Positions 25,881 to 56,537 of a DNA stretch of 64,000 nucleotides are shown here, piece by piece (the stretch's first letter is position 1; the number at the start of each line of letters is the position of its first letter). The translations under genes and the position numbers were made by a program. The notes beneath the pieces were generated by a model, which saw only the letters and a list, made by a program, of their open reading frames with translations, ran no database searches and was not told the DNA's origin. This DNA comes from a virus. Its lineage: Duplodnaviria > Caudoviricetes. The DNA lies in IMG/VR virus record IMGVR_UViG_3300044656_000027, positions 47,290 to 111,289 of that record; one strand, written 5' to 3'.

Positions 25881-25937
25881 GTTTAGATTCTAGTGTAAAA
25901 GAAAACCCCTGTCAAGAGACAGAGGCTTTCAGTGGAG

Positions 25938-26019
25938 TGGGTAGAGAGGGACTTGAACCCCCAGATCCGAAGAACGGGTTTTACAGACCCGCGCGCTACC
26001 AATTACGCTTTACCTACCC
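25938..26019 (-). tRNA. tRNA-Tyr(GTA)
   Basis: Cloverleaf by eye; cgggt-CTGTAAA-acccg; variable arm. Confidence 0.9.
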
Positions 26020-26020
26020 A

Positions 26021-26095
26021 TGGGGTGACCAACGGGGATCGAACCCGCGATACTTGAGTCACAGTCAAGCGTGTTACCGCTACACCATGGCCACC
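26021..26095 (-). tRNA. tRNA-His(GTG) with encoded G-1 and CCA
   Basis: cttga-CTGTGAC-tcaag. Confidence 0.92.
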
Positions 26096-26104
26096 ATGTG
26101 AAAG

Positions 26105-26175
26105 AGGGAAGCTAGGGACTCGAACCCTAAATGGCGGGGACACAATCCGCTATGTTACCGTTACATTAGCGACCC
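26105..26175 (-). tRNA. Atypical tRNA-like gene, GTG anticodon
   Basis: Good T and D arms; two acceptor-stem mismatches; loop TTGTGTC. Confidence 0.55.
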
Positions 26176-26181
26176 ATAGAC

Positions 26182-26211
26182 ACTATATCGGATTGGAACA
26201 GTAAGTGTCAA
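26182..26211 (-). promoter_or_regulatory. Internal tRNA-array promoter
   Basis: TTGACA-N18-TATAGT. Confidence 0.6.
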
Positions 26212-26212
26212 G

Positions 26213-26284
26213 TACGAACACCAAGAATTGAACTTGAAATTAGACTTTATCAGAGTCTCGTGATAACCGTTTCACCATGCTCGC
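26213..26284 (-). tRNA. tRNA-Ile(GAT)
   Basis: agact-CTGATAA-agtct. Confidence 0.88.
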
Positions 26285-26289
26285 ATTAT

Positions 26290-26598
26290 TTAAATATCCT
26301 CTAGCATGCGCTTAATGAAGCTCTTTGGCTTAGCTCCAACTGCATACTTAATGATACTGCCTTCGCGGAACAAAAGCAAGGTTGGTATAGATGAGATGTC
26401 GTACTTCTTAGTGAGGTTAGGATTCTCATCTGCGTTTACCTTGATGACCTTGAGCCAGTCGTTCTCTTCTGAGATAGACTCTAGCACAGGTGCCATCATC
26501 TTGCAAGGACCACACCACTCAGCCCAGAAGTCAACTAATACGTACTTGTTATCAGCAATTACTGAATCGAATGTTATTTCTGATACTGCCTGCATCAT
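26290..26598 (-). CDS. trxA: Thioredoxin
   Basis: LVDFWAEWCGPCK...SSIPTL. Confidence 0.95.
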   Translation of the reverse strand: MMQAVSEITFDSVIADNKYVLVDFWAEWCGPCKMMAPVLESISEENDWLKVIKVNADENPNLTKKYDISSIPTLLLFREGSIIKYAVGAKPKSFIKRMLEDI

Positions 26599-26610
26599 CT
26601 CTCCTTTACG

Positions 26611-26683
26611 TAGGGCATAGAGGAATTGAACCTCTTATCGTTGGGATATAAGCCCACTGCATCGACCGTTATGCTAATGCCCC
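26611..26683 (-). tRNA. tRNA-Ile(TAT)
   Basis: tggg-CTTATAT-ccca; canonical D and T arms. Confidence 0.8.
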
Positions 26684-26795
26684 AAAGCCCTGTCGCACAT
26701 TCTCCGACTCTCTATGTAACCTCATTCGGACTACTGTGAGACTTCTCTACTAACCCTCGTTACACAGGGTGTTTGATGGCTCGGACTAGCCAAAG

Positions 26796-26879
26796 CGGAG
26801 GATGAGGGATTCGAACCCCCACGGCTTTTACACCGTATTGTTTTCAAGACAACTCCACGCCACCGATGTTAGATCCTCC
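26796..26879 (-). tRNA. tRNA-Ser(TGA)
   Basis: ttgt-CTTGAAA-acaa; long variable arm; G discriminator. Confidence 0.85.
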
Positions 26880-26925
26880 ATGTGATAAGCCTTTTGGTTA
26901 GTAGGGCGCTTATCTAATCCCTAAG

Positions 26926-27013
26926 CGGAGATAGAGGGATTCGAACCCTCGGGGCGATTTGAATACCCGCTGCCTTTCCAAGACAGTGCACTAGACCTCT
27001 ATGCGATATCTCC
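26926..27013 (-). tRNA. tRNA-Ser(GGA)
   Basis: ctgtc-TTGGAAA-ggcag; long variable arm. Confidence 0.9.
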
Positions 27014-27022
27014 ATTATTTAA

Positions 27023-27127
27023 TTAGCGTGGATCAGGATTCTTTGTTCCACACTTTGGGCAATACAGATTTCTCTTATCAGAAGGCATATAGCACTTTGG
27101 ACAATAGAAGATACTTCCACCAGACAT
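27023..27127 (-). CDS. 34-aa Zn-ribbon microprotein
   Basis: MSGGSIFYCPKCYMPSDKRNLYCPKCGTKNPDPR; TAATG-coupled; absent from ORF track. Confidence 0.75.
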   Translation of the reverse strand: MSGGSIFYCPKCYMPSDKRNLYCPKCGTKNPDPR

Positions 27128-27210
27128 TATCGTGCCACCTTGCAGTTATAGCAGTGACCGTACTTGTCCATGTTGATGTGACCACAATACTTACACTTCC
27201 AAAAGCTCAC
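27127..27210 (-). CDS. 27-aa RanBP2-type Zn-finger microprotein
   Basis: MSFWKCKYCGHINMDKYGHCYNCKVAR; GTGA-coupled. Confidence 0.75.
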   Translation of the reverse strand: MSFWKCKYCGHINMDKYGHCYNCKVAR

Positions 27211-27299
27211 TTTGGCTTACCCTTCATCCATCGACAGTGCCAGCACTTTGCTTTTGCTTCATTGTTGTACGAGCCGCAGTTATTGCATTTCCAACCCAT
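27207..27299 (-). CDS. 30-aa RanBP2-type Zn-finger microprotein
   Basis: GGAGG RBS; MGWKCNNCGSYNNEAKAKCWHCRWMKGKPK. Confidence 0.8.
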   Translation of the reverse strand: MGWKCNNCGSYNNEAKAKCWHCRWMKGKPK

Positions 27300-27312
27300 A
27301 ATATCCTCCAAG

Positions 27313-27392
27313 CGGAAGGAGGAGGATTCGAACCCCCAGCTATTCACTGAACGGTTTAGCAAACCGTCTGCCAGACCCCTGACTCACCTTCC
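27313..27392 (-). tRNA. tRNA-Ser(GCT)
   Basis: acggt-TTGCTAA-accgt; variable arm. Confidence 0.85.
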
Positions 27393-27396
27393 AAAG

Positions 27397-27473
27397 AGCG
27401 CAGCAGGAGAATCGAACTCCAAACCAATCGCTTTGCAGGCGATCCCCAGACCATCCGAGTTAGGACACTGCGC
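27397..27473 (-). tRNA. tRNA-Cys(GCA), enlarged D region
   Basis: atcgc-CTGCAAA-gcgat; U discriminator. Confidence 0.8.
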
Positions 27474-27478
27474 ATAAG

Positions 27479-27558
27479 TGGAGCTGCGGGGATTCGAACC
27501 CCGGTGCTGATAACTTCCGACATGCGGTTTTAATCACCAGACGAAACCAACCAGCCCC
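27479..27558 (-). ncRNA. Minimal tmRNA-like RNA (tRNA-like domain only)
   Basis: GGGGCTG/CAGCTCC-A acceptor with G3.U70; GGTTTCG loop without D stem; P2-like helix; T arm; no tag ORF. Confidence 0.75.
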
Positions 27559-27655
27559 ATTGTGTCTGGCCTCATACGGGCTATTACCAGACTTGAAGTG
27601 CCCAGAGCCCGCACTTAGGGCTACTGTCCCGTAAAGGAATCTCGTCAGATTCCAG

Positions 27656-27726
27656 TACCCAGTGAGGGAATCGAACCCCCGCATGTGGTGTGTAAAACCA
27701 CTGGTCTCCCATTAACCTAACCGGGC
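27656..27726 (-). tRNA. tRNA-Val(TAC)
   Basis: gtggt-TTTACAC-accac. Confidence 0.88.
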
Positions 27727-27758
27727 AGGTAGAAGAACCGAAGTTCTTCTAGTATAGC

Positions 27759-27965
27759 TTAACTGCGATAGGCGATAAAGTCAACCGGCACGCTTTCCTC
27801 AACTCCATCGTGCCATCTGACATCTACGCAAGTGGTTCCCATCCAGTCGTACTCAGGGCAAAGAGTAACGCCTGAGTGATTACGACGAGAACCATTCCTA
27901 CCAACAACATTGATCCCTCGGAAGTTGGAAGGTGCTTCCTTCTTCTTACGACCAAACAGACCCAC
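27759..27965 (-). CDS. Hypothetical protein
   Basis: AAGGGG RBS. Confidence 0.55.
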   Translation of the reverse strand: MGLFGRKKKEAPSNFRGINVVGRNGSRRNHSGVTLCPEYDWMGTTCVDVRWHDGVEESVPVDFIAYRS

Positions 27966-27997
27966 TGTGTTCCCCTTCGTTAGTTGGTGTGTCTATC

Positions 27998-28276
27998 TTA
28001 GACCAGGTAGGACCAAGTGTCAACACTACCGTCAGTGCGCTTGAGGCTAATGGATCGATTGACCTCACCCTCCTCAAACGTCCAAGCCATCAGACGCAGG
28101 TGGTACTCAGTGTCAAGGTGCTGGGGAAGACCCATCTCCTCAAGCTCACACAGAGCCTCCATCGTCTTAGCCACGTTGTAAGCGGCAACGGCAAAGCTCT
28201 CAACAGGAACCGTAGAGCTCTTCTTAAAGCCGTCCTTGGACTCGACATCAATAGTGAGTGTAGCCATTTTGTGCAT
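27998..28276 (-). CDS. Hypothetical protein
   Basis: ORF between tRNAs; phage-like codon use. Confidence 0.55.
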   Translation of the reverse strand: MHKMATLTIDVESKDGFKKSSTVPVESFAVAAYNVAKTMEALCELEEMGLPQHLDTEYHLRLMAWTFEEGEVNRSISLKRTDGSVDTWSYLV

Positions 28277-28298
28277 CCCTTCGATTGATACTATGACG

Positions 28299-28371
28299 TA
28301 CCCTAGACAGGATTCGAACCTGCATTGAACAGCTTAGAAGGCTGGTGAGTTATCCGTTACTCTACTAGGGC
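28299..28371 (-). tRNA. tRNA-Arg(TCT)
   Basis: cagc-CTTCTAA-gctg. Confidence 0.9.
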
Positions 28372-28398
28372 AAGAGGGACCGAAGTCCCGGATACTGC

Positions 28399-28953
28399 TT
28401 AGTCCCACCACATAGCCTTAGCATATAGTGGATTCTCTTCTATGTCAACGTCCCACCAGTTATCAACCTCAGCCCAACGCCAGATCGTTCCCCAGTCGTC
28501 GTATCCATTAGGTACTTCGATAGCAGAATTTGGATCAGTGTCAGCATGGTGTCCCATGTAGTTAATAGCCTGCTTGAGTTGCTGCTTGACGTTGTGTCTG
28601 CGAGCCTGACTTACAGCCTTCTTAGCGCCGTGTCGTGGCCAACCGTAGCCTATATCAGTTGCGTAGTATTTGCAACCATCACGCCAACGATTGTGCGTAT
28701 GTGTCATTGGCTCATCAATATTACAAGGAACTTCCTCAGTCCAACGATCCCAGACGTGAACGGATTCTTGACGCTCTGGAATCTTGTAGTAACGCATTTC
28801 ATCCCAATCCCAAACATACTTGGAAGGGATGGTAGTTACATCCGTACGAACATACTCTCTTCGATGACGCAGATGATTATGGACAGCCTCACGGCGTTCC
28901 TTAGAGTCATTAGAGCGAACCCAGTAAGGACGATCCTTGCGAGTGCGGGACAT
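28399..28953 (-). CDS. Hypothetical basic/Trp-rich protein
   Basis: GGGAG RBS; MSRTRKDRPYWVR N-terminus. Confidence 0.6.
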   Translation of the reverse strand: MSRTRKDRPYWVRSNDSKERREAVHNHLRHRREYVRTDVTTIPSKYVWDWDEMRYYKIPERQESVHVWDRWTEEVPCNIDEPMTHTHNRWRDGCKYYATDIGYGWPRHGAKKAVSQARRHNVKQQLKQAINYMGHHADTDPNSAIEVPNGYDDWGTIWRWAEVDNWWDVDIEENPLYAKAMWWD

Positions 28954-29064
28954 ATTTACTCCCTTGTTAGTGCTAAAGCAAATGCCAGTATTTAGAGGAA
29001 CTGGCTGGCCTCCCGTTCATTGAGACTTTCTAGGGTGTGTTTCAGAACGGCTTAGATATCCCTG

Positions 29065-29140
29065 CACGGATGACAGGAGTTGAACCTGCATGTGTCCTTT
29101 AACCTTTCTACGCGTTCGTAGCGCGAGGGTATACATCCGC
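29065..29140 (-). ncRNA. Non-canonical tRNA-like RNA with ACG anticodon and no D arm in the usual place
   Basis: GCGGATG/CATCCGT acceptor; CGCG-CTACGAA-CGCG; 21-nt post-anticodon segment; T arm. Confidence 0.65.
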
Positions 29141-29551
29141 ATTAAGTTGCCACCAATTAAACTGTCTGGCAGTTCTGTATCTGTGACATTTGACACAACG
29201 AATATCGCACTTAGCGATCTCAGTTTGTAAAACTTCTAAACTAAGCTTTCGCTTAATACCATCCGCTATATTAAAACTTTTGGTTTCTGGATCTCGATGA
29301 TCAAAGTCCAGAAGGACTATATCAGACTCGCCACAATCTATACAGGGATTCTGATCATAGTAATTTACTAAGTAAGTTCTAACCTTTACTAGGTACTTCT
29401 CATCATTACGCCGTGCCTTAGCCAAGTAGCTTTGCTTATTAGCTTGATAATGCTCACGAGTATACTTACGATGACAAGGCTTACACATTGCACTCTTAGT
29501 TGCGAACTCTTCTTTGGCCAACTCTTGGTTGCACCTACTACATGTTTTCAT
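29108..29551 (-). CDS. HNH endonuclease
   Basis: KTCSRC...CKPC; PCIDCGE...LDFDHRDP...CDIRCVKCHR. Confidence 0.85.
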   Translation of the reverse strand: MKTCSRCNQELAKEEFATKSAMCKPCHRKYTREHYQANKQSYLAKARRNDEKYLVKVRTYLVNYYDQNPCIDCGESDIVLLDFDHRDPETKSFNIADGIKRKLSLEVLQTEIAKCDIRCVKCHRYRTARQFNWWQLNADVYPRATNA

Positions 29552-29571
29552 GCTACTAATTATAGCATAGG

Positions 29572-29609
29572 TTCGTAGGCAAGTGCTCTATCCGTTGAGC
29601 TATAGCACC
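29572..29609 (-). pseudogene. 5' half of tRNA-Arg(ACG), truncated at the anticodon loop
   Basis: GGTGCTA-TA-GCTC-AACGGATA-GAGC-A-CTTGC-CTACGAA followed directly by the HNH promoter; no matching 3' half seen. Confidence 0.75.
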
Positions 29610-29617
29610 ATACTTTG

Positions 29618-30121
29618 TTACTTCTTTAAACTTAGCAGATAATCTCTTATAGCACCAGGACTTGTCAAGTATGCTGGCTTGTTAGACAGCTTGGAACCCG
29701 CCAAATCGTAATCCTCAGCACAGAGTTGAGAGCAGATCAAGTGCTTGCTGTTAAGAACTCTAGCAGAGATCCAAGGAAGAGGCAAGTGCAGTCTCTTCGT
29801 GAAAATCGCAAAGTAATCCAGGAAACTGTATGGTGTGCCAATCTGATTGGTTGCTAGAGTAACGATAGTCACTCTTTGCTGAGCTGTCAAATCAATCAGA
29901 CCAGAGGACCACAGGATCTCTCGTCCATCGTACTTCGACAAGTTAGTTCTGATAGCACCACCAGGTTGAGCTTCTACGATCTCACCATTACCAATGTAAA
30001 TGAAGGCATGCTCATAGTTGGAGAAGCCATCTCCGTTAAGCCACTGGCCTAAGCGAATCAGCTTGCCCACAGTACCGTTGATACTTACTAAGCCTACATC
30101 ACCTGGTAATAGTTCCGCCAC
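29618..30121 (-). CDS. Permuted papain-like NlpC/P60 (YiiX/YaeF-like) protein
   Basis: PGD...YEHAFIYIG...VEA...GTPY...ICSQL (His before Cys); start trimmed. Confidence 0.8.
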   Translation of the reverse strand: MAELLPGDVGLVSINGTVGKLIRLGQWLNGDGFSNYEHAFIYIGNGEIVEAQPGGAIRTNLSKYDGREILWSSGLIDLTAQQRVTIVTLATNQIGTPYSFLDYFAIFTKRLHLPLPWISARVLNSKHLICSQLCAEDYDLAGSKLSNKPAYLTSPGAIRDYLLSLKK

Positions 30122-30251
30122 TACACTTCTCCTTGTGCTTAAAGAATGCTTTCTCTGCTTCACCCTCAGAGTCAAATGGACCCTCAGAATGCCTACCAGT
30201 AGCGCACTCGTGAGTAAACTTCCACTTACCTGGTCTATGTTGAATGACCAT
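30099..30251 (-). CDS. Small hypothetical protein
   Basis: AGGAGG RBS; MVIQHRPGKW... Confidence 0.5.
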   Translation of the reverse strand: MVIQHRPGKWKFTHECATGRHSEGPFDSEGEAEKAFFKHKEKCSGGTITR

Positions 30252-30266
30252 CTTTCCTCCTTTACG

Positions 30267-30339
30267 TACCCCCAGTGGGACTCGAACCCACACCACGCGG
30301 ATTAAAAGTCCGCTGCATTAACCGTTGTGCTATAGGGGC
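30267..30339 (-). tRNA. tRNA-Lys(TTT)
   Basis: gcgga-CTTTTAA-tccgc. Confidence 0.92.
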
Positions 30340-30363
30340 ATAGGGCCGAAGCCCTCTTTCGAA

Positions 30364-30798
30364 TTACTTACCAGTGCCAGCCTGAGCAGTAATGGTAGGA
30401 ATACCACCCTGACCAGAAGGAACGTAAACAACAGTGTTGTTCTTGCCAGACTCAGCGATACGCTCAAGAGCCTGAGTCATCTCGTACTGAACGTAGATGG
30501 GAGTCAGAGTCTTAGCGATCTCATCCTGAGCCTCACGGACACCAATGGCGTCCTGGAGACGAATCTCAGCCTGCTGCTTAGCAATCTGAACTCGCTGCGC
30601 CTGATTCTGGATCTCAATGTTAGAGACCTCAACCTGGTTATTCGCAGCAATAATATTCGCCTGAGCCTTGTTCTTAGCATCCTGGATATTCTGGTATCGA
30701 CCAAAAGCCTGGAAACCCGCAATGGCACCCATGAAGATACCGATTACAAGAGCCAGACCAAGAATCGCAGCAACACCCTTGCCCAGAATCTCAGACAT
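30364..30798 (-). CDS. Membrane-anchored coiled-coil protein (band-7 C-terminus-like)
   Basis: N-terminal TM; KTLTPIYVQY...TVVYVP. Confidence 0.6.
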   Translation of the reverse strand: MSEILGKGVAAILGLALVIGIFMGAIAGFQAFGRYQNIQDAKNKAQANIIAANNQVEVSNIEIQNQAQRVQIAKQQAEIRLQDAIGVREAQDEIAKTLTPIYVQYEMTQALERIAESGKNNTVVYVPSGQGGIPTITAQAGTGK

Positions 30799-30847
30799 TT
30801 AGTTATTCTCCTTCTTAATACTCCGAGTACCGATCTAATGATCGGAG

Positions 30848-30921
30848 AGCCCACTATGGGATTCGAACCCATGACCTCTTCATTACCAATGAAGTGCTCT
30901 GCCAGGCTGAGCTAAGAGGGC
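30848..30921 (-). tRNA. tRNA-Thr(GGT)
   Basis: cttca-TTGGTAA-tgaag. Confidence 0.92.
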
Positions 30922-31028
30922 AAAACAAGATTGAGATCGGGACGCCGAACTTGTCACTTCCCAGCGATACTGCCTGCATACAGTTCAATCTCTGGAACTC
31001 ATCTAAGCGCTTAGAGTGTTGTTCGTTG

Positions 31029-31100
31029 TACTCCGCCAGGGACTTGAACCCTGATCCATGGATTAAGAGTCCATTGCATCACCATTAATGCTTGCGAAGC
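31029..31100 (-). tRNA. tRNA-Lys(CTT)
   Basis: atgga-CTCTTAA-tccat. Confidence 0.9.
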
Positions 31101-31129
31101 ATAAGGCTCCTATTGGAGCCCGTTTTACG

Positions 31130-31435
31130 TTACTTACCAAAGAGCCAACGTGCAAGACCCTTTGTCTCTCGATAAGGCTCGTTCTCCTGGTATCCTCCAC
31201 CGAAAGTGCTCTCATACGCAAGACGCTCAGCAGAAACCTGTGCGTGACCCTCAGGAGTTAAAGGGGTACCACGAGAGAACTCCTTGCGCATACCGTCCTT
31301 GGAGGTATACTCGTTCACCTTGAAGTTAGGTGCTGGAGTATCGGAACCATCGTCCTTAAGATACTTATCGTAATAAGCATCGTAATGAACTCCGAGCTTC
31401 TTCTGCTCCTTAGGCGTAAGCCACTTCTCAGGCAT
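31130..31435 (-). CDS. Hypothetical protein
   Basis: GGGAGG RBS. Confidence 0.55.
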   Translation of the reverse strand: MPEKWLTPKEQKKLGVHYDAYYDKYLKDDGSDTPAPNFKVNEYTSKDGMRKEFSRGTPLTPEGHAQVSAERLAYESTFGGGYQENEPYRETKGLARWLFGK

Positions 31436-31469
31436 AAGGTTTTGCCTCCCTTATATTGGTTATAAAACG

Positions 31470-31541
31470 TGGAGCCACGGGGAATCGAACCCCGAACTTC
31501 GGATTGCAAAACCGATGTGTTTCCGTTAGCACCATGGCCCC
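31470..31541 (-). tRNA. tRNA-Ala(TGC)
   Basis: G3.U70; loop TTTGCAA. Confidence 0.9.
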
Positions 31542-31603
31542 AGTGTTCTCATCTAGTGTACCACACTCTAGATGAAATAAAAAGCCCAACTTAATGGGCT
31601 AAG

Positions 31604-31675
31604 CTCTCACAGCTGGATTCGAACCAACAACCTTGGAGTTAACAGCTCCCTGCTCTGCCATTGAGCTATGCGAGA
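31604..31675 (-). tRNA. tRNA-Asn(GTT)
   Basis: ggag-CTGTTAA-ctcc. Confidence 0.9.
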
Positions 31676-31746
31676 ATAAGCCTCAACCACTAGGGAAGAG
31701 GTGGTGTATGTTGTTTATCTTAGCAAACTCTCGTTAGAGAGTCAAG

Positions 31747-31817
31747 CAGGCCACCCAGGAGTCGAACCCGGCCGAATTGGGTTGGAACCAATCATGCTTC
31801 CGATACATCAGTGGCCT
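31747..31817 (-). tRNA. tRNA-Trp(CCA)
   Basis: attgg-TTCCAAC-ccaat. Confidence 0.88.
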
Positions 31818-31863
31818 ATATGGTTCCGTTGTTTCCCACGCACAACGGTTTCCTAAAAGCTCG

Positions 31864-31936
31864 TAGCGCCCGTCGGATTCGAACCGACACTGATTAGTTC
31901 CTAAGACTAATGCCTCTGCCATTGGGCTAGAGCGCC
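31864..31936 (-). tRNA. tRNA-Leu(TAG), short variable loop
   Basis: ttagt-CTTAGGA-actaa. Confidence 0.88.
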
Positions 31937-31976
31937 ATACGCACTCAGTGGCCAAAGCGGGTGAGTGCTTGTGTTA

Positions 31977-32420
31977 CTAGCTTATCAGATTATGAACGTA
32001 ATGGGAAGCTTCATAGTCTGACGCTGATGCATTGTGGATGCCTCCGTGTCCTCTGTGGTGCTTAGCACACAGGAACATGAAGTTCTCTTCTGATTCTACC
32101 CAAGCGCCCACTTCATTAGGATCAGAGATCCCAGGGAAGTCCTGCTCTAGGTACTTCAAGTCTACACCCTGCTGCATGCTGAATTCAACATGGCTGTGGT
32201 GTAGCTCCAGACCTCCAGCACACTCGGAAGTATCTCCGCCACGACGTAATGCGAATTCGCATACAGCGTCCTTGACGTGAGTCTTACGATAGTGCTCAAA
32301 GTCACGATAATGTGGATCATCCTTTCTAGCTGGATGAGCCGGAAATGCTACTGTGTAATGCTTAGTTTCAGCTTGTGTATGCGCTTCTACTACCTTACCC
32401 ATACTGGCCCTATCTGTCAA
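31977..32420 (-). CDS. His/Cys-rich protein, HNH-like
   Basis: LELHHSHVE...LCAKHHRGHGGIH. Confidence 0.5.
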   Translation of the reverse strand: MTDRASMGKVVEAHTQAETKHYTVAFPAHPARKDDPHYRDFEHYRKTHVKDAVCEFALRRGGDTSECAGGLELHHSHVEFSMQQGVDLKYLEQDFPGISDPNEVGAWVESEENFMFLCAKHHRGHGGIHNASASDYEASHYVHNLIS

Positions 32421-32998
32421 TAGCCCTTAGGTGGGCGTGTTGGATCAAATTGCTGAACCTTGGCAGCTAGGTCATGTCCATCTCTGGATACTCCATAGAA
32501 CTGTACCACATAGTTCATAGCCGCACAAGTGTTGGCTACGGCATCGTAAATGTCATATGACGTTCCAAGTTGGTGATACTTTGCAAAGGTTGGTGGAATA
32601 CATTGTAGAACACCACGAGAACAATTTGCAGGATGACCATCAGCAACGATAGGTCCAGTAGCGTTTAGATCATAAGTGTTTACTGCGTTAAAGTCATAAC
32701 TGCTTTCACGGTTGGCCGCAGTAACAAGTCCAGTCTTCCAATAACTCTGTGCTGTCGGATCAGTAATAGACATGATCTCGAATACCTTTGGCAGCACAGT
32801 AGAGGTAAAGGATACAGAGTTGTCTACTAGGCCGTAACTAACAGCACCTACACTAATAGGAGAAGGTGTAAATCCAGTGTCTACTGATATTTCGATACTG
32901 TTCTTAGTCAGCTTAGTCTTAGTTGTTATACCGTTAACAGTAATAATTGCAGTGGCCCCAAGAGGCAATGTGCCGGATGTAAATAAGTGCTCTATCAT
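32417..32998 (-). CDS. Lytic transglycosylase (SLT) domain protein
   Basis: RESS...AVNTYD.NA...SRGVLQCIPPTF...AAMNYV..YG; start trimmed. Confidence 0.85.
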   Translation of the reverse strand: MIEHLFTSGTLPLGATAIITVNGITTKTKLTKNSIEISVDTGFTPSPISVGAVSYGLVDNSVSFTSTVLPKVFEIMSITDPTAQSYWKTGLVTAANRESSYDFNAVNTYDLNATGPIVADGHPANCSRGVLQCIPPTFAKYHQLGTSYDIYDAVANTCAAMNYVVQFYGVSRDGHDLAAKVQQFDPTRPPKGY

Positions 32999-32999
32999 A

Positions 33000-33344
33000 T
33001 TATTCCAATTCAGTAATCGGTATCCAGCCCTTGCCCTCACGGCCCTCTACTAGAAGGTTACGAGGCTCCATGTCTCTGGCTACTCTGTCTTCAACCTTCT
33101 CAAGCCCATGAAGGGTCCTGTGTGTCCATATGCGGAACTTTGAGGACTCTGCCATACGTCTGAATGCCAAACGCTTGTTGATCAGCTGAGAGCGCTCCTC
33201 ACGGCTTTCACCTACAGCACCGGAAGGCTTATGAATTACTCTTACGCCCGTTTCGCGCTTATTCTGATTCTGACCACCCTTTCCTCCTGAACGGAAGGTT
33301 TGGACCTCACAATCATGAATAGTCACGCTAAATGCTTTTTCCAT
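33000..33344 (-). CDS. Peptide chain release factor (RF-1/GGQ) domain protein, ArfB-like
   Basis: [26 protein letters not shown]...ERSQLINK. Confidence 0.9.
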
Positions 33345-33345
33345 G

Positions 33346-33419
33346 TAGTCCTACTCGGATTCGAACCGAGAACCTTCACATTTTGAGTGTGACGCCTCTG
33401 CCAATTGGGCTACAGGACC
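33346..33419 (-). tRNA. tRNA-Leu(CAA), short variable loop
   Basis: tcaca-CTCAAAA-tgtga. Confidence 0.88.
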
Positions 33420-33472
33420 ATTTCTGCCCCCGATGGGCCTTGTGCACTGGAATTTCCAGGATCGGGGTAAAG

Positions 33473-33546
33473 TAGTCCTTGTCGGACTCGAACCGACACC
33501 TGAACAGGGTTTAAGCCTGTTGCCTCTTCCATTGGGCTAAAGGACC
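33473..33546 (-). tRNA. tRNA-Leu(TAA), same decoding as bldA
   Basis: acagg-CTTAAAC-cctgt. Confidence 0.88.
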
Positions 33547-33554
33547 ATAATGTG

Positions 33555-33625
33555 AGCCCTGCGAAGGAATTGAACCCTCATTTGCGCATTACGAAAGCGC
33601 TGTTCTGCCGTTTAACTAGCAGGGC
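33555..33625 (-). tRNA. tRNA-Thr(CGT)
   Basis: gcgc-t-TTCGTAA-t-gcgc. Confidence 0.85.
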
Positions 33626-33629
33626 AATG

Positions 33630-33769
33630 TGGATAGTTGGATTCGATGATTACCAACAAGGCATTTCCTACGTCATACAGTAAATACCTACCATCCCTTT
33701 GGGTGCTACCCAAGACCGCTAAGTCAGGATGTGCGTTCGACCCATAGGCGAGTCTTTTCCGCCATATCC
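33630..33769 (-). ncRNA. Expanded tRNA-like multi-helix RNA
   Basis: GGATA/TATCC-A closing stem; D-like and T-like arms; internal helices. Confidence 0.45.
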
Positions 33770-33795
33770 GGTCAGCATGATCAGTGCCGACTTTG

Positions 33796-33868
33796 AGCCC
33801 CCAGTCGGATTCGAACCGACGACCTACGCTTTACAAGAGCGTTGCTCTGGCCTCTGAGCTATAAGGGC
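33796..33868 (-). tRNA. tRNA-Thr(TGT)
   Basis: acgct-CTTGTAA-agcgt. Confidence 0.92.
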
Positions 33869-33910
33869 ATAGGGAGTCTCCGGAAGGAGGAAACAGAGAC
33901 TCCCAGTATA

Positions 33911-34204
33911 TTAGGCAGTTCCCGTAGCGGTAACTACCCAGTCTGTGTTTGCGTTCAGAGTAAAGTCAATTGGCTTGCTGAACGCGTTACCAGTTAGGTA
34001 AACAGTCCAAAGACCGTCAGTAGCACCAGCACCAGGAGCGTTAACTGCCTGCTGAATTGACGCAACTGTTGGATATCCCAGTCCAGAACCAGACGCAGGA
34101 GCGGTTTGCACGTAGCAGTGACCATCTGCGGCTGCTGCAAGAACAACCTGAGTACCCACAGTCAAAGCATTAACTCTGATTGGAGCATTGTAAGTAATTG
34201 CCAT
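33911..34204 (-). CDS. Hypothetical protein (virion-like composition)
   Basis: Ala/Thr/Gly-rich; start trimmed to ATG. Confidence 0.5.
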   Translation of the reverse strand: MAITYNAPIRVNALTVGTQVVLAAAADGHCYVQTAPASGSGLGYPTVASIQQAVNAPGAGATDGLWTVYLTGNAFSKPIDFTLNANTDWVVTATGTA

Positions 34205-34273
34205 AAGTGGCACCTTTCATGAAAGGGATTGAGCGCTATAGCATTCTCAATAATATCATGAAAGATTATTGTG

Positions 34274-34347
34274 CACCGAAGACGAGATTTGAACCCGCAA
34301 ATACCCAGCTTGAAAGGCTGGTGACTCTACCATTCGTCCACTCCGGC
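34274..34347 (-). tRNA. tRNA-Glu(TTC)
   Basis: ccagc-CTTTCAA-gctgg. Confidence 0.9.
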
Positions 34348-34496
34348 AAGCGCAGAGATGACACCAACCCCTGCGGTTATTACATAGTATTTAATAGGCA
34401 GCCTATCTCTTTTCGGCTAGCGGGAGGACAGGTAGCCCTTTAGCTCAGGCTTCCAACTCTTCCTTTATCCCTAGAGACCTATTATGGTGTCTTACG

Positions 34497-34570
34497 TACT
34501 CCGTACGGGATTCGAACCCGTATTCTCCCGGTTGAGAGCCGGGTGAGATGTCCTATTACTCTAACGGAGC
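34497..34570 (-). tRNA. tRNA-Glu(CTC)
   Basis: cccgg-CTCTCAA-ccggg. Confidence 0.9.
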
Positions 34571-34616
34571 ATACATCTCCTTGGTTGGCGAAGGAGATGG
34601 TTCCTCAATGTACGCG

Positions 34617-34689
34617 CGCCCCTGACGGGATTCGAACCCGCCCTTGCACCTTGACAGGGTACCGTGCTACTCCCATACACTACAGGGGC
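34617..34689 (-). tRNA. tRNA-Asp(GTC)
   Basis: gtacc-CTGTCAA-ggtgc. Confidence 0.9.
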
Positions 34690-34695
34690 TTTTAT

Positions 34696-35154
34696 TTACA
34701 CCATCTTAAAAGCTGCCGTACGCATGGCTTCTGCGAACTCCGTGTCAGGAAGTTTCTTGGCGTCTTGTGGTGCTTCTACATTACCAGTGAACACATCGTA
34801 TGTCAACTCACGTGTGTACTTGTTAGCGATCTTCTCCATCTGAACATACATGTCATTCAGCATGTTCATCATGTCGTTCTGCGCTCTCTGTGATAGAGAC
34901 CTTATACCATCCTGGCGTCCTCTGTCAACAGCAGCCTTGGTGTCCGCAGCAAACTCAGGTGTGTGAATTAGCGCGTCATTTTCGTTGTAGAGCTCTCGAA
35001 TCTTCTTCTCAGTCTCAGATAGCTTCTGACGTAGCGTAAGCGCCTCAGACTGCCATCTAGCCATGCCTAAGCGTGCTTCCTCAAGCTCCCACTTGGTGTC
35101 CTTGAGTTCATCTGACACAAGGGACAACGCGTTTCTAATTGCGGACTTCTTCAT
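34696..35154 (-). CDS. Coiled-coil hypothetical protein
   Basis: AGGAG RBS. Confidence 0.6.
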   Translation of the reverse strand: MKKSAIRNALSLVSDELKDTKWELEEARLGMARWQSEALTLRQKLSETEKKIRELYNENDALIHTPEFAADTKAAVDRGRQDGIRSLSQRAQNDMMNMLNDMYVQMEKIANKYTRELTYDVFTGNVEAPQDAKKLPDTEFAEAMRTAAFKMV

Positions 35155-35238
35155 TATATTCTCCTAGTTATTATCACAATGTAGTGACAGTATATCAGAG
35201 AATAGAAAAAGCCCCTGTAATACAACAGGGGCCTTAAG

Positions 35239-35529
35239 TTACTCAGCAGGCCAAGTAATGTTTGGTCGTTGAAACTTAACTCTGCCATTTCTTACAATGG
35301 CACGTTCAATATCTGGGGATTCCTCACCATAGCGAATCATAATCAGATACTTATCTGGATACTGGTACGCGATCTGCTGTAAATCCTCGTCCCAGTTATA
35401 CCACTTAGCGCTATACATGCAACCATCGTCATCCCAAGACGGACCATAATTGCCTGTATTAGCAGCAAGGACATCCTTAATATCAGGAATGTCCGTGTCT
35501 ACAGTTTCAAAATTTGAGTAATATCCCAT
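35239..35529 (-). CDS. Hypothetical protein
   Basis: AGGAGG RBS; MGYYS...KWY...GEE pattern. Confidence 0.65.
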   Translation of the reverse strand: MGYYSNFETVDTDIPDIKDVLAANTGNYGPSWDDDGCMYSAKWYNWDEDLQQIAYQYPDKYLIMIRYGEESPDIERAIVRNGRVKFQRPNITWPAE

Positions 35530-35652
35530 TCTTACCTCCTACGTAAGTGGTCTTCCCGTAGTCAGTGTGCACCTGACTTTTCCCGTACGTTCCTGCTGCT
35601 AGCTAGCGTTCACGTCTGTAGAGTGTTGTATCCCAGTTAAGGGACGGGGGCG

Positions 35653-35723
35653 CTGGGGCGCAGAGATTCGAACTCCGATAGGCTGATCCAAAGTCAGCAG
35701 TCCTGCCATTAGACGAAACCCCA
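35653..35723 (-). tRNA. tRNA-Gln(TTG)
   Basis: gctga-CTTTGGA-tcagc. Confidence 0.88.
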
Positions 35724-35739
35724 TTAAATTTGCTGCAAG

Positions 35740-35810
35740 CTCCCCGACATGGATTCGAACCACGATTTCTTCGTCCAGAGCGAAGCGTGCTGCCCTTACA
35801 CCATCAGGGA
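35740..35810 (-). tRNA. tRNA-Gln(CTG)
   Basis: cttcg-CTCTGGA-cgaag. Confidence 0.9.
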
Positions 35811-35848
35811 ATAAGTGCCCTGCTATTGCTAGCTGTTTATGGGCTAAG

Positions 35849-35921
35849 TACCGTATAGGAGACTCGAACTCCTTCGTTCACTTTGGAAGAGTGACATGCT
35901 GCCATTAAACATCAATACGGC
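35849..35921 (-). tRNA. tRNA-Gly(TCC)
   Basis: tcact-CTTCCAA-agtga. Confidence 0.9.
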
Positions 35922-35998
35922 ATTGCTTGTAGTCAGGCGGTTCTTTCAGGTTCTACAAGCTCCTCTGTCGCTACATATCGCAGCAACCGCCAGGAAAC

Positions 35999-36394
35999 TT
36001 AGTAATCGTCGTGAGATTCGTCTTCATCCCATTCAGGAACACACCAACCGCAATCACACCAGTCTTCGTAGTATTCCTCTTCCTCTTCGTCCTCATAACC
36101 AATCAAAGTTACTACAGGACCCGCAGAGGTTACATCTACGTCAACAATACGGTCAGAACCATCCTGAACCTCAGCAGATACTCCCCAACCCGTTTCAGAA
36201 CCATATTCAGCCTTCATAAGCTCCTCAATGAGGATACGAGTCAGATATGGAGTATCGTACTTGCGATTAAGTGCTCTTCCGACGCTTAGACCTGTCATAA
36301 CCATTGCTGGCAGGTCCGACCCATTCCAGTGAGTGTAAATGTACACACCTGGACGATTTCCTTCATGAATGTATACGTTAGCTCTATCTCCCAT
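35999..36394 (-). CDS. Hypothetical protein with acidic tail, probably leaderless
   Basis: MGDRANV..IYTHWNG; ATG 7 nt after -10. Confidence 0.65.
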   Translation of the reverse strand: MGDRANVYIHEGNRPGVYIYTHWNGSDLPAMVMTGLSVGRALNRKYDTPYLTRILIEELMKAEYGSETGWGVSAEVQDGSDRIVDVDVTSAGPVVTLIGYEDEEEEEYYEDWCDCGWCVPEWDEDESHDDY

Positions 36395-36401
36395 GTGAGA
36401 G

Positions 36402-36430
36402 ACTGTACTACATTCACTTGAAGATGTCAA
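36402..36430 (-). promoter_or_regulatory. Promoter (leaderless)
   Basis: TTGACA-N17-TACAGT, 7 nt to ATG. Confidence 0.65.
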
Positions 36431-36431
36431 G

Positions 36432-36515
36432 TGGTAGCGGAGGCGGGATTTGAACCTCTTTGTGCGATCTCTAGCTTATGAGGCTAGCGAGATGACCTAG
36501 CTTCTCTACTCCGCG
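36432..36515 (-). tRNA. Initiator-like tRNA-Met(CAT) with T-stem insertion
   Basis: C1:A72 mismatch; encoded CCA; ctagc-CTCATAA-gctag. Confidence 0.75.
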
Positions 36516-36517
36516 AG

Positions 36518-36589
36518 TACCGGGAGTGGGAATCGAACCCACGACGACAAGGTTATGAATCTTGCGTTCTACCATTGAACTATCCCGGC
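36518..36589 (-). tRNA. tRNA-Met(CAT) elongator (or Ile2)
   Basis: Loop TTCATAA. Confidence 0.82.
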
Positions 36590-36599
36590 AAAAGATATG

Positions 36600-36672
36600 T
36601 GCCGCCTGTAGGACTCGAACCTACGACCTGTCGGGCTTCAACCGACCGCTCTTCCAACTGAGCTAAAGCGGC
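36600..36672 (-). tRNA. tRNA-Phe(GAA)
   Basis: gtcgg-TTGAAGC-ccgac. Confidence 0.9.
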
Positions 36673-36746
36673 AATACGAGTAATTACTATGTTTAGTACC
36701 CTAGTCCATTATATTTAGCGGTATTTACTAGTCTATTACTCAAACT

Positions 36747-36821
36747 TGGTCGTCTTTGTGGGGCTGGACCCACTCCTCTGCCCTCCCACGGACAGTGTGC
36801 AACCGGTTACACCATTAGACG
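36747..36821 (-). tRNA. Degenerate tRNA-Pro-like gene with 8-nt anticodon loop
   Basis: C1, A73, CCA; ctgtc-CGTGGGAG-ggcag; aberrant T loop. Confidence 0.45.
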
Positions 36822-36826
36822 ATAAG

Positions 36827-36898
36827 TCGGGTACCGGGGAATCGAACCCCGTTTATCCTGATCCCAAATCAGGCGGATTACCATCTTCCTCGTACCCG
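36827..36898 (-). tRNA. tRNA-Pro(TGG)
   Basis: cctga-TTTGGGA-tcagg. Confidence 0.9.
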
Positions 36899-36955
36899 AG
36901 GGCTCATAGGACGGAAGGGAAACATCCTATGAGCTTTTCGAAAGGAGGCAAGATC

Positions 36956-36984
36956 AGTATAACTCATCTTCTTCCTTAATGCAA
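36956..36984 (-). promoter_or_regulatory. Promoter at head of tRNA array
   Basis: TTGCAT-N17-TATACT. Confidence 0.65.
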
Positions 36985-37126
36985 ATCAAGTCTTACGATA
37001 CTGCTTAACGTGCTTATCGCACATCTTGCGCCATTCTCCTTTGAACCATACTAGCTCAGCCGCCTTGTTATGGCAAGCTCTGAACCAGCATTGCTTACCG
37101 ACTGGATAGTATTTAAAAGGCATGAC

Positions 37127-55959: not shown

Positions 55960-56460
55960 TCAGTAGTTCAGATCAAAGATGTAGAACCAGCCCTCAAATT
56001 CAACCAGCTCGTAACCGTAGTAATCGGCGTAAGCCGTAACGGTCTCCTCAGCGTCCAGCACAACCCAAGAGGGGATGTTCAACATCTCCTCTTGGTACTC
56101 CTCCACAGCAGCCCACAGGTACTCAAGGCAAGAGCCCTCAGCAAGCTTGGCGTAGGTCATGTTCGAGAAGTTCGCAGACTCATCCACAGTGAGCCATGCC
56201 GCGATGGTGTGCGCGTCGTAGTCGCTTTCCTTGAGCTGATCGAACAGCTCAATCACGTCACGCTCAGAGCTGAGGTCCTTAAGAGCCTCATACTCGAAAG
56301 AGTTACCGTCGATCACAACGGACACCATCTCATAGCCCGCGCCGATCAGTCGAGAGTAAACACCCTCAAAGCGGTAGGTGTCGTGGTCCTCATTCAGGTT
56401 CACGTTAACGAACCGCTCACCCTTGTTGAAGACGACGCGAAGCTCACGGAAGTCAGACAT
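55960..56460 (-). CDS. ArdA-like acidic antirestriction protein (putative DNA mimic)
   Basis: Highly acidic; C-terminal IPSWVVLDAEE..AYAD..GYELVEFEGWFYIF resembles the ArdA C-terminus. Confidence 0.5.
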   Translation of the reverse strand: MSDFRELRVVFNKGERFVNVNLNEDHDTYRFEGVYSRLIGAGYEMVSVVIDGNSFEYEALKDLSSERDVIELFDQLKESDYDAHTIAAWLTVDESANFSNMTYAKLAEGSCLEYLWAAVEEYQEEMLNIPSWVVLDAEETVTAYADYYGYELVEFEGWFYIFDLNY

Positions 56461-56537
56461 TGTGTTTCCCTTCGGTGTGTTGGTTCTAGTGAACCAGACG
56501 GACTAGGGAGTGTCAACCCCCTAGACCATCCTACCCA

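Follow-up and report, generated by a model that had tools for sequence, protein, structure and literature searches.

Several bacterial small RNAs (sRNAs) are built around an exposed loop that resembles the anti-Shine-Dalgarno (anti-SD) tail of 16S ribosomal RNA (rRNA) or is rich in C. In the cuckoo RNAs of Alphaproteobacteria (RSs0680/CcsR1-4, alpha-r14 and NfeR1), the anti-SD-like loop is the only conserved sequence and the stems vary by compensatory change (PMC4615179), and a preprint (10.1101/2025.11.14.688489) describes NfeR1 as silencing many mRNAs through three redundant anti-SD motifs. The 6C sRNA of Actinobacteria represses through C-rich loops that pair with purine-rich ribosome-binding sites (RBSs), with no RNA chaperone (PMC6486639). 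For phage tRNA arrays, our searches of the literature turned up no account of anti-SD motifs. Here we analyse such motifs in the tRNA array of an uncultured phage, using a 64,000-nucleotide (nt) stretch of DNA (the window) that comprises bases 47290-111289 of the complete 111,289-bp IMG/VR virus record IMGVR_UViG_3300044656_000027 (direct terminal repeats; 48.8% G+C). The elements in question are the putative start of the array transcript, a hairpin shortly after it and before tRNA-Pro (hairpin 2), and a hairpin further into the array before tRNA-Thr (hairpin 1). An earlier sequence-only reading of the window had proposed that both hairpins display anti-SD loops, which tRNA processing would release as sRNAs.

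The source is an uncultured 111-kb soil phage that, by its sequence, is related to the Streptomyces phage BRock. Its 32 tRNA genes begin in the order Pro, Phe, Met, Met, Gly, Gln, Gln, Asp, Glu, Glu, followed by a conserved 100-amino-acid (aa) open reading frame (ORF) and then Thr; because this tRNA order and the ORF are common to the cultured Streptomyces phages BRock, LuckySocke, Alone3, GiJojo and pSt2308, the host is likely to be Streptomyces or another actinobacterium. Through the 100-aa ORF we collected closer uncultured relatives, here called G001, G002, G003 and G004, whose aa identity to the window in this ORF is 78, 52, 50 and 53%, respectively, compared with 40-47% for the BRock-type phages; two metagenome contigs reach 80%.

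A predicted anti-SD-like leader at the head of the array

The strongest conservation signal is an anti-SD-like motif at the predicted start of the transcript, and not in hairpin 2. A sigma-70-type promoter-like site heads the array (Table 1), and because GCCTCCTTTC begins 6 nt after its -10 hexamer, G36949 is the likely first transcribed base. In five diverged lineages that were found via the neighbouring ORF, independently of the motif, all 10 columns of GCCTCCTTTC are invariant, as are the -10 hexamer TATACT and the G next to it in the alignment, and the 6 nt between the hexamer and GCCTCCTTTC, together with all of the sequence that follows the motif, vary. Three further lineages that carry GCCTCCTTTC came from a pattern scan; because the scan pattern contains the motif, we count them as additional members and not as independent evidence of conservation. 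Across four whole genomes scanned, no other promoter-like site is followed by the leader motif. The sequence-only reading had already noted a transcript start resembling the 16S tail, and the motif is indeed present, one base away from the 36939-36948 that it gave.

Nine bases of the leader, CCUCCUUUC, correspond to the end of actinobacterial 16S rRNA, ...ACCUCCUUUCU. The tail in this form is documented for Bacillus subtilis, and CCUCCU is reported to be its universal core (PMC6107228). When the five leaders were folded from the predicted start to the ribonuclease P (RNase P) site, each gave a free 5′ tail of 13-15 nt, a hairpin of 8-12 bp and a 3-nt tail, with an unpaired probability of at least 0.98 for CCUCCUUUC in the modelled RNAs and with the sequence of the hairpin free to vary among the five. 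The predicted duplex of the leader with GAAAGGAGGU reaches -17.0 kcal/mol, against -16.5 kcal/mol for the 16S tail itself.

CCUCCU loops before array tRNAs

Hairpin 1 ends exactly 3 nt before tRNA-Thr (tRNA 5′ end 33868). Its stem, GGGAGTCTC/GAGACTCCC, has 9 bp, extended by RNAfold to 11 bp with the loop UUUCCUCCUUC; at a minimum free energy (MFE) of -19.3 kcal/mol (z = -4.36), it is more stable than all 200 shuffled versions, and the motif has an unpaired probability of 1.0 in the fold model. The loop core TCCTCCTTC is present on three unrelated stems in three lineages: GGGAGTCTC[TGTTTCCTCCTTCCG]GAGACTCCC in the window, (AG)ACAACAG[TGTTCCTCCTTCCG]CTGTTGT(TT) in G001, L127 and L128, and GAGGCCCGTAG[TATCCTCCTTC]CTACGGGCCTC in G004. 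Third-position synonymous identity in the adjoining 100-aa ORF is 0.58 between the window and G001 and 0.43 between the window and G004, and since synonymous sites are thus near saturation, a 9-nt core identical on unrelated stems would not survive drift.

The BRock-type phages lack the leader motif, though their array is of the same kind, and carry a CCUCCU loop at another position. Their hairpin, GCGGGGAGG[TTTT(T)CCTCCTACTTTC]CCTCCCCGC, stands directly before tRNA-Asp in the tRNA-Gln/tRNA-Asp spacer, which it often occupies entirely; with its loop UUUU(U)CCUCCUACUUUC it lies 3 nt before tRNA-Asp in most of these phages and 1 nt before it in L130, whose stem is longer. The stems GCGGGGAGG, GCGGGTAGG and GCGGAGAGG are each fully compensated, and two independent compensated changes, in L134 (GCGGGTAGG/CCTACCCGC) and pSt2308 (GCGGAGAGG/CCTCTCCGC), leave a near-identical loop; L134 has a second CCUCCU loop before tRNA-Leu. 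A scan for the BRock-type loop returned two unrelated chance matches, and no such hairpins are present in about 24 kb of array region sampled from Rhodococcus phage Trina and a more distant Streptomyces phage, Sham. At least one exposed CCUCCU is found in the array of every lineage examined. Together these comparisons support the view that what is conserved is the exposed CCUCCU and that selection acts on an exposed anti-SD-like sequence.

Hairpin 2 ends exactly 3 nt before tRNA-Pro (tRNA 5′ end 36898) and has a 10-bp stem, GCTCATAGGA/TCCTATGAGC, extended to 12 bp with the loop UUUCCCUUC (MFE -18.6 kcal/mol; z = -6.72 against shuffles). A hairpin occupies this leader position in every relative, with stem and loop both varying. 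Both window hairpins are therefore present and stable, as the sequence-only reading had described them, and their near-identical loops, which differ by a 2-nt indel only (TGTTTCC[TC]CTTCCG), do sit on unrelated stems. Its proposal that the loop is under selection, to be checked by covariation, divides between the two: it agrees with the three unrelated stems around the hairpin 1 core and with the compensated BRock-type stems, and does not extend to hairpin 2, whose loop is replaced in most relatives. Two similar C-rich loops that it had listed do not fold into stable hairpins (z = -0.90 for 34415-34437 and -1.16 for 31686-31705); the former segment supplies the 3′ strand of an inner helix when the tRNA-Glu/tRNA-Glu spacer of the window is folded, and relatives share the outer helix of this spacer. 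This spacer holds a conserved structured RNA directly after tRNA-Glu(CTC), present in all lineages including the BRock-type phages, with the core UAGCnGAAA..GAUAnGCUGCCU, compensatory changes at 3 pairs of its outer helix and no match to an Rfam family.

Hairpins of this kind are a generic device of the arrays. Across 25937-36934 on the minus strand, a hairpin of at least 7 bp ends 3-5 nt upstream of 10 of the 32 tRNAs (exactly 3 nt for 7 of them), compared with 4.4% of random positions, and the relatives share the pattern, G001 for only 3 of its 30 tRNAs at the 7-bp cutoff. Most of the loops are arbitrary (for example TTCG, AATA or CGCCAACC), and since pre-tRNA hairpins are generic here, an unrelated stem on each is unremarkable in itself. 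An RNase P cut at the 5′ end of a tRNA would create the 3′ end of the upstream RNA, which the hairpin may then protect. An intrinsic terminator would combine a GC-rich hairpin with a U-tract, and no T-run follows hairpin 1 or 2; because the phage has a canonical U-tract terminator, the only one listed on the transcribed strand of 33700-37100, the U-less hairpins are a different device.

At stems of at least 8 bp, hairpins 1 and 2 are the only hairpins in the genome with pyrimidine-only loops. A relaxed scan with 7-bp stems gave 2-10 weak matches per strand per genome, nearly all outside tRNA arrays, and given this background we counted strong hairpins only; stems were read directly and scanned by script, MAFFT having misaligned the unrelated ones. 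The word CCTCCTT is found at only three places on the transcribed strand of the whole 111-kb genome, namely the two named sites and within a tRNA-Ser. Scanning IMG/VR for the hairpin 1 loop word yielded more than 114 matches; among the matches listed, inverted repeats surround it only in the window's genome and one relative, and several read as reverse complements of RBS-plus-start sites.

Several further features lie in or near the array. The 100-aa ORF belongs to no Pfam or PHROG family, and a perfect palindrome, CTTTCATGAAAG, overlaps its RBS and is kept in G001; some 50 nt upstream, in surroundings that resemble a promoter, is a second CTTTCATGA. Inside the array are a gene for an RF-1-domain protein of 114 aa (GGQ; Pfam PF00472, E 4e-16) and, between tRNA-Cys and tRNA-Val, an 83-nt match to the Rfam transfer-messenger RNA (tmRNA) model RF00023 (58.2 bits; gathering score 47), far too short for a tag reading frame and not called by ARAGORN. 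A 131-aa ORF (PHROG 31860, unknown function), whose ATG stands 7 nt after a promoter-like TTGACA-17-TACAGT, looks like a leaderless gene within the array. In the BRock-type phages, a promoter in the ORF/tRNA-Thr spacer is embedded in a hairpin, the arms of which are swapped between BRock (CCTGTGG/CCACAGG) and LuckySocke (CCACAG/CTGTGG).

Table 1. Positions of the features discussed, in window coordinates unless another sequence is named.
Feature	Position	Strand	Details
tRNA array, 32 tRNA genes	25937-36898	-	ARAGORN, Rfam
Promoter-like site heading the array, sigma-70 type	36956-36985	-	TTTGCA-18-TATACT or TTGCAT-17-TATACT; consensus scan
GCCTCCTTTC, predicted first 10 nt of the array transcript	36940-36949	-	RNA GCCUCCUUUC; 6 nt after -10 hexamer
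Hairpin 2, leader stem-loop	36902-36934	-	10-12 bp stem, loop UGUUUCCCUUCCG
Spacer CCT (36899-36901), then tRNA-Pro(TGG), first tRNA of the array	36826-36901	-	ARAGORN, Rfam
131-aa ORF, promoter-like site	36394-36430	-	TTGACA-17-TACAGT
Canonical U-tract terminator	35235-35208	-	
Structured RNA after tRNA-Glu	34390-34495	-	L003 5611-5710; L122 3516-3615; L123 3534-3633; L119 3460-3560; L120 3663-3765
Palindrome CTTTCATGAAAG	about 34213-34232	-	L003 about 5983-5996
100-aa ORF, conserved, function not assigned by family	33911-34213	-	syntenic homologues in all relatives and BRock-type phages; hairpin 1 after its stop codon
Hairpin 1	33872-33904	-	9-11 bp stem, loop UGUUUCCUCCUUCCG, core UCCUCCUUC
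Spacer TAT (33869-33871), then tRNA-Thr(TGT)	33795-33871	-	ARAGORN, Rfam
RF-1 domain protein, 114 aa	33003-33344	-	Pfam PF00472
tmRNA-like match, 83 nt	27476-27558	-	Rfam RF00023
RBS GAAGGGAAACA of ORF 55960-56460	56461-56475	-	behind TTGACA-17-TTCACT
Promoter between hairpin 1 and tRNA-Thr, G004	L124 4350-4413		TTGACT-17-GATACT
Promoter between hairpin 1 and tRNA-Thr, G001	L003 6326-6360		TTGACA-18-TATAGT
Promoter embedded in hairpin, BRock-type ORF/tRNA-Thr spacer	L119 4303-4337; L120 4296-4330		TTGACG-17-TACTGT with TG

A possible role in masking ribosome-binding sites

The explanation that we favour, tentatively and by analogy with known sRNAs, is that the array yields RNase P-released, hairpin-protected small RNAs that pair with AGGAGG-type sites. 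The primary transcript would start with GCCUCCUUUC and run through hairpin 2 and 3 nt into tRNA-Pro, and RNase P, by cutting at the 5′ end of the tRNA, would free a leader of 40-64 nt with an unpaired anti-SD 'seed' at its 5′ end and a hairpin guarding its 3′ end; in the window, the cut would fall at 36898/36899 and leave a 51-nt leader RNA. Hairpin 1 shows UCCUCCUUC in a loop at the 3′ end of the 100-aa ORF, directly before tRNA-Thr in the window phage, and the BRock-type phages have a comparable loop between tRNA-Gln and tRNA-Asp. If stable, such RNAs could pair with AGGAGG-type RBSs of host or phage mRNAs and block initiation much as cuckoo RNAs such as NfeR1, and 6C, do. RNAs that mask RBSs typically have either an unpaired 5′ seed ahead of a hairpin or a stable stem topped by a CCUCCU loop, and we lean towards this reading because the anatomy fits and the predicted leader duplexes match the 16S tail in strength. 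The hairpin 1 and BRock-type loops are predicted to form SD duplexes of -8 to -13 kcal/mol.

A number of observations weigh against this reading. Hairpin 1 is absent from two lineages, G002 and G003, and in G001 and G004 a promoter stands between it and tRNA-Thr, so that there the hairpin would mark an mRNA 3′ end and release by RNase P cannot be general. The loop of hairpin 2 is not conserved, relatives having TTAACG, TAGGTTCGTC, a 22-nt loop or TACTCCTTTT in its place, and its predicted SD duplexes are weak (-6 to -7 kcal/mol); TGTTTCCCTTC of this hairpin is found otherwise only in L163, where it lies partly inside the stem. About 59 of the 211 called phage genes have an SD of at least 5 nt and most others a 4-nt match (by a crude gene call), and since an SD mask would hit the phage too, any effect would have to be selective or timed. 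The 5′ leaders of tRNA precursors are, moreover, usually short-lived. Matches to the loop pattern equal the shuffled expectation, and the transcribed strand shows no enrichment of CCTCCT-type words; because the motif is not enriched, the case rests on conservation in relatives and not on counts. A search for targets gave one extended candidate, the RBS of ORF 55960-56460, which we rejected: the weak homologue of this ORF in G001 has a different RBS, and G001 lacks the hairpin 2 loop that it would pair with.

Three observations stand beside these points. The rejected RBS, GAAGGGAAACA, is perfectly complementary to the hairpin 2 loop over 11 nt and lies 2 nt before the ATG, behind a promoter-like site of its own; the match is probably due to chance. 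Pairing in cis between the hairpin 1 loop and the SD of the 100-aa ORF itself (GAAAGG) was likewise rejected, at 4-5 bp at most. Beside hairpin 1 of G004, part of the tRNA-Thr 5′ end is still present as a second copy (TATGCCCCTTA), which suggests that an insertion separated hairpin 1 from tRNA-Thr in this lineage.

Other explanations account for parts of the evidence. The hairpins may be purely structural, protecting upstream RNA 3′ ends or insulating tRNA folding at RNase P sites, with no role in trans for the loops or the leader start and with conservation owed to promoter escape, to avoided pairing with nearby purine-rich tRNA or RBS sequences, or to shared descent. The excess of hairpins, mostly with arbitrary loops, 3-5 nt before tRNAs fits this, as do the freely varying loop of hairpin 2 and the lack of enrichment of the motif; we nevertheless consider it unlikely, given a 9-nt loop core that is identical on three unrelated stems with synonymous sites near saturation, a leader motif that is invariant while the adjacent promoter discriminator varies, a CCUCCU that recurs at a different array position in the BRock-type phages and a transcript start shared by no other promoter-like site. 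Rather less probable in our judgement is a general decoy, in which the phage would make mimics of the 16S 3′ tail as by-products of its tRNA operon, in the form of an RNase P-released leader with an unpaired CCUCCUUUC 5′ end and of hairpins with CCUCCU loops, either reprogramming initiation by titrating strong-SD host messages, and so favouring leaderless or weak-SD phage genes, or absorbing a host defence nuclease directed at the anti-SD. The exposed CCUCCUUUC could also mimic the 16S 3′ tail so as to bind or distract a protein that recognizes it, such as an endoribonuclease toxin of the MazF type, the ribosome-maturation factors Era or YbeY, or a protein of the phage itself. Toxins of the MazF type cut in or close to the anti-SD, the leader agrees with the 16S tail over 9 consecutive nt, which is beyond what SD pairing needs, and the same region carries other translation cargo in its 32 tRNAs, tmRNA-like RNA and RF-1-domain protein. 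Against such a protein decoy, Pfam and PHROG searches found no RNA-binding family in the neighbouring ORFs and no candidate protein emerged; and because, beyond CCUCCU itself, the loops no longer resemble the 16S tail, base pairing suits them better than a specific protein site. We regard this alternative as improbable.

Transcription signals offer another account, which we likewise hold improbable, if anything a shade more so: the leader motif and its hairpin would form a nut/boxA-like site of processive antitermination for an array of about 11 kb that is mostly untranslated, and hairpin 1 a terminator of the small ORF that lacks a U-tract. Directly after the promoter of a long untranslated operon there are indeed, in this order, a linear motif that is conserved, a short spacer and a hairpin that varies, and in G001 and G004 the promoter directly after hairpin 1 makes a terminator-promoter arrangement. 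The boxA consensus is UGCUCUUUA in rrn operons and CGCUCUUA in lambda (PMC2724277), however, and GCCUCCUUUC can be aligned with them only if two extra C are allowed and the last base is let differ; the BRock-type phages have the same kind of array with no leader motif, the CCUCCU in loops at other positions is left unexplained, and hairpin 1 has no U-tract in a phage that has a canonical terminator elsewhere. Least probable of all, we find it hard to credit that the elements act at the DNA level, as inverted repeats with a CCTCCT core that would be binding sites of a phage protein or parts of promoters. The G004 hairpin 1 loop does contain TATCCT 17 nt after a TTGACA, and a BRock-type promoter is embedded in the hairpin before tRNA-Thr; yet the arms covary freely with pairing kept, the elements keep to within 3 nt of tRNA 5′ ends and to the transcribed strand, and a correctly spaced -35 element is missing from both the window and G001.

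The RBS-masking reading would give the extra stable RNAs of phage tRNA clusters a testable job, that of holding the mRNA-docking sequence of the ribosome single-stranded. If leader and spacer RNAs accumulate and bind RBSs, tRNA arrays would deliver, beyond codon supply, translation regulators whose ends are made by RNase P of the host. Cultured Streptomyces phages carry the BRock-type version (BRock, LuckySocke, GiJojo and pSt2308), which makes the question directly testable.

Relation to described RNAs

None of the elements matches an Rfam family at the gathering threshold, nor at E values up to 10 over 33700-37050, the cuckoo-family and 6C models included, so that the cuckoo covariance models do not recognize them. 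In design, judged by analogy, the closest analogue is nonetheless the cuckoo family, with its variable stems and conserved anti-SD-like loop. Here too the stems vary around a conserved loop, on three unrelated stems for hairpin 1 and through two compensated changes in the BRock-type phages. The differences lie in architecture and in sequence. Cuckoo RNAs hold 2-4 adjacent hairpins in one RNA (PMC4615179), whereas the phage has single hairpins about 3 kb apart; cuckoo RNAs are chromosomal, independent sRNAs, and each phage hairpin has a tRNA on one side and an ORF or promoter on the other. The cuckoo loop is CCUCCUCCC, and the phage sequence is UCCUCCUU(U)C, shown in single hairpins or a linear 5′ tail within an actinophage tRNA array and adjoining RNase P sites; the phage loops UUUCCUCCUUC, UUUCCCUUC, UAUCCUCCUUC and UUUUUCCUCCUACUUUC share only CCUCCU, and none has the cuckoo sequence.

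6C resembles the phage elements in belonging to high-GC Gram-positive bacteria, the probable host clade of the phage. It has more than one C-rich loop and is encoded by the host, from a gene that has a promoter and a terminator to itself. The phage elements show no match to the Rfam 6C model. The lambda nut site (boxA, spacer, boxB; PMC2724277) is similar in that the promoter of a long operon is followed at once by a linear motif under conservation, a spacer and a hairpin, and differs in that two insertions are needed for the boxA fit and that the phage motif also occurs in hairpin loops far from promoters.

As candidate products of tRNA precursors, the phage elements join a small group. The tRNA regions of T4 and T5 give rise to stable small RNAs that are co-transcribed with the phage tRNAs, have no known function and are larger; they are not known to carry anti-SD motifs. 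In Escherichia coli, 3'ETS-leuZ is a persistent by-product of a tRNA precursor that acts by base pairing, a 3′ trailer that sponges sRNAs with Hfq. The phage elements have the position expected of such RNAs: the hairpins lie 3 nt before a tRNA and the promoter-like site 51 nt before tRNA-Pro, with the promoter after hairpin 1 intervening in G001 and G004.

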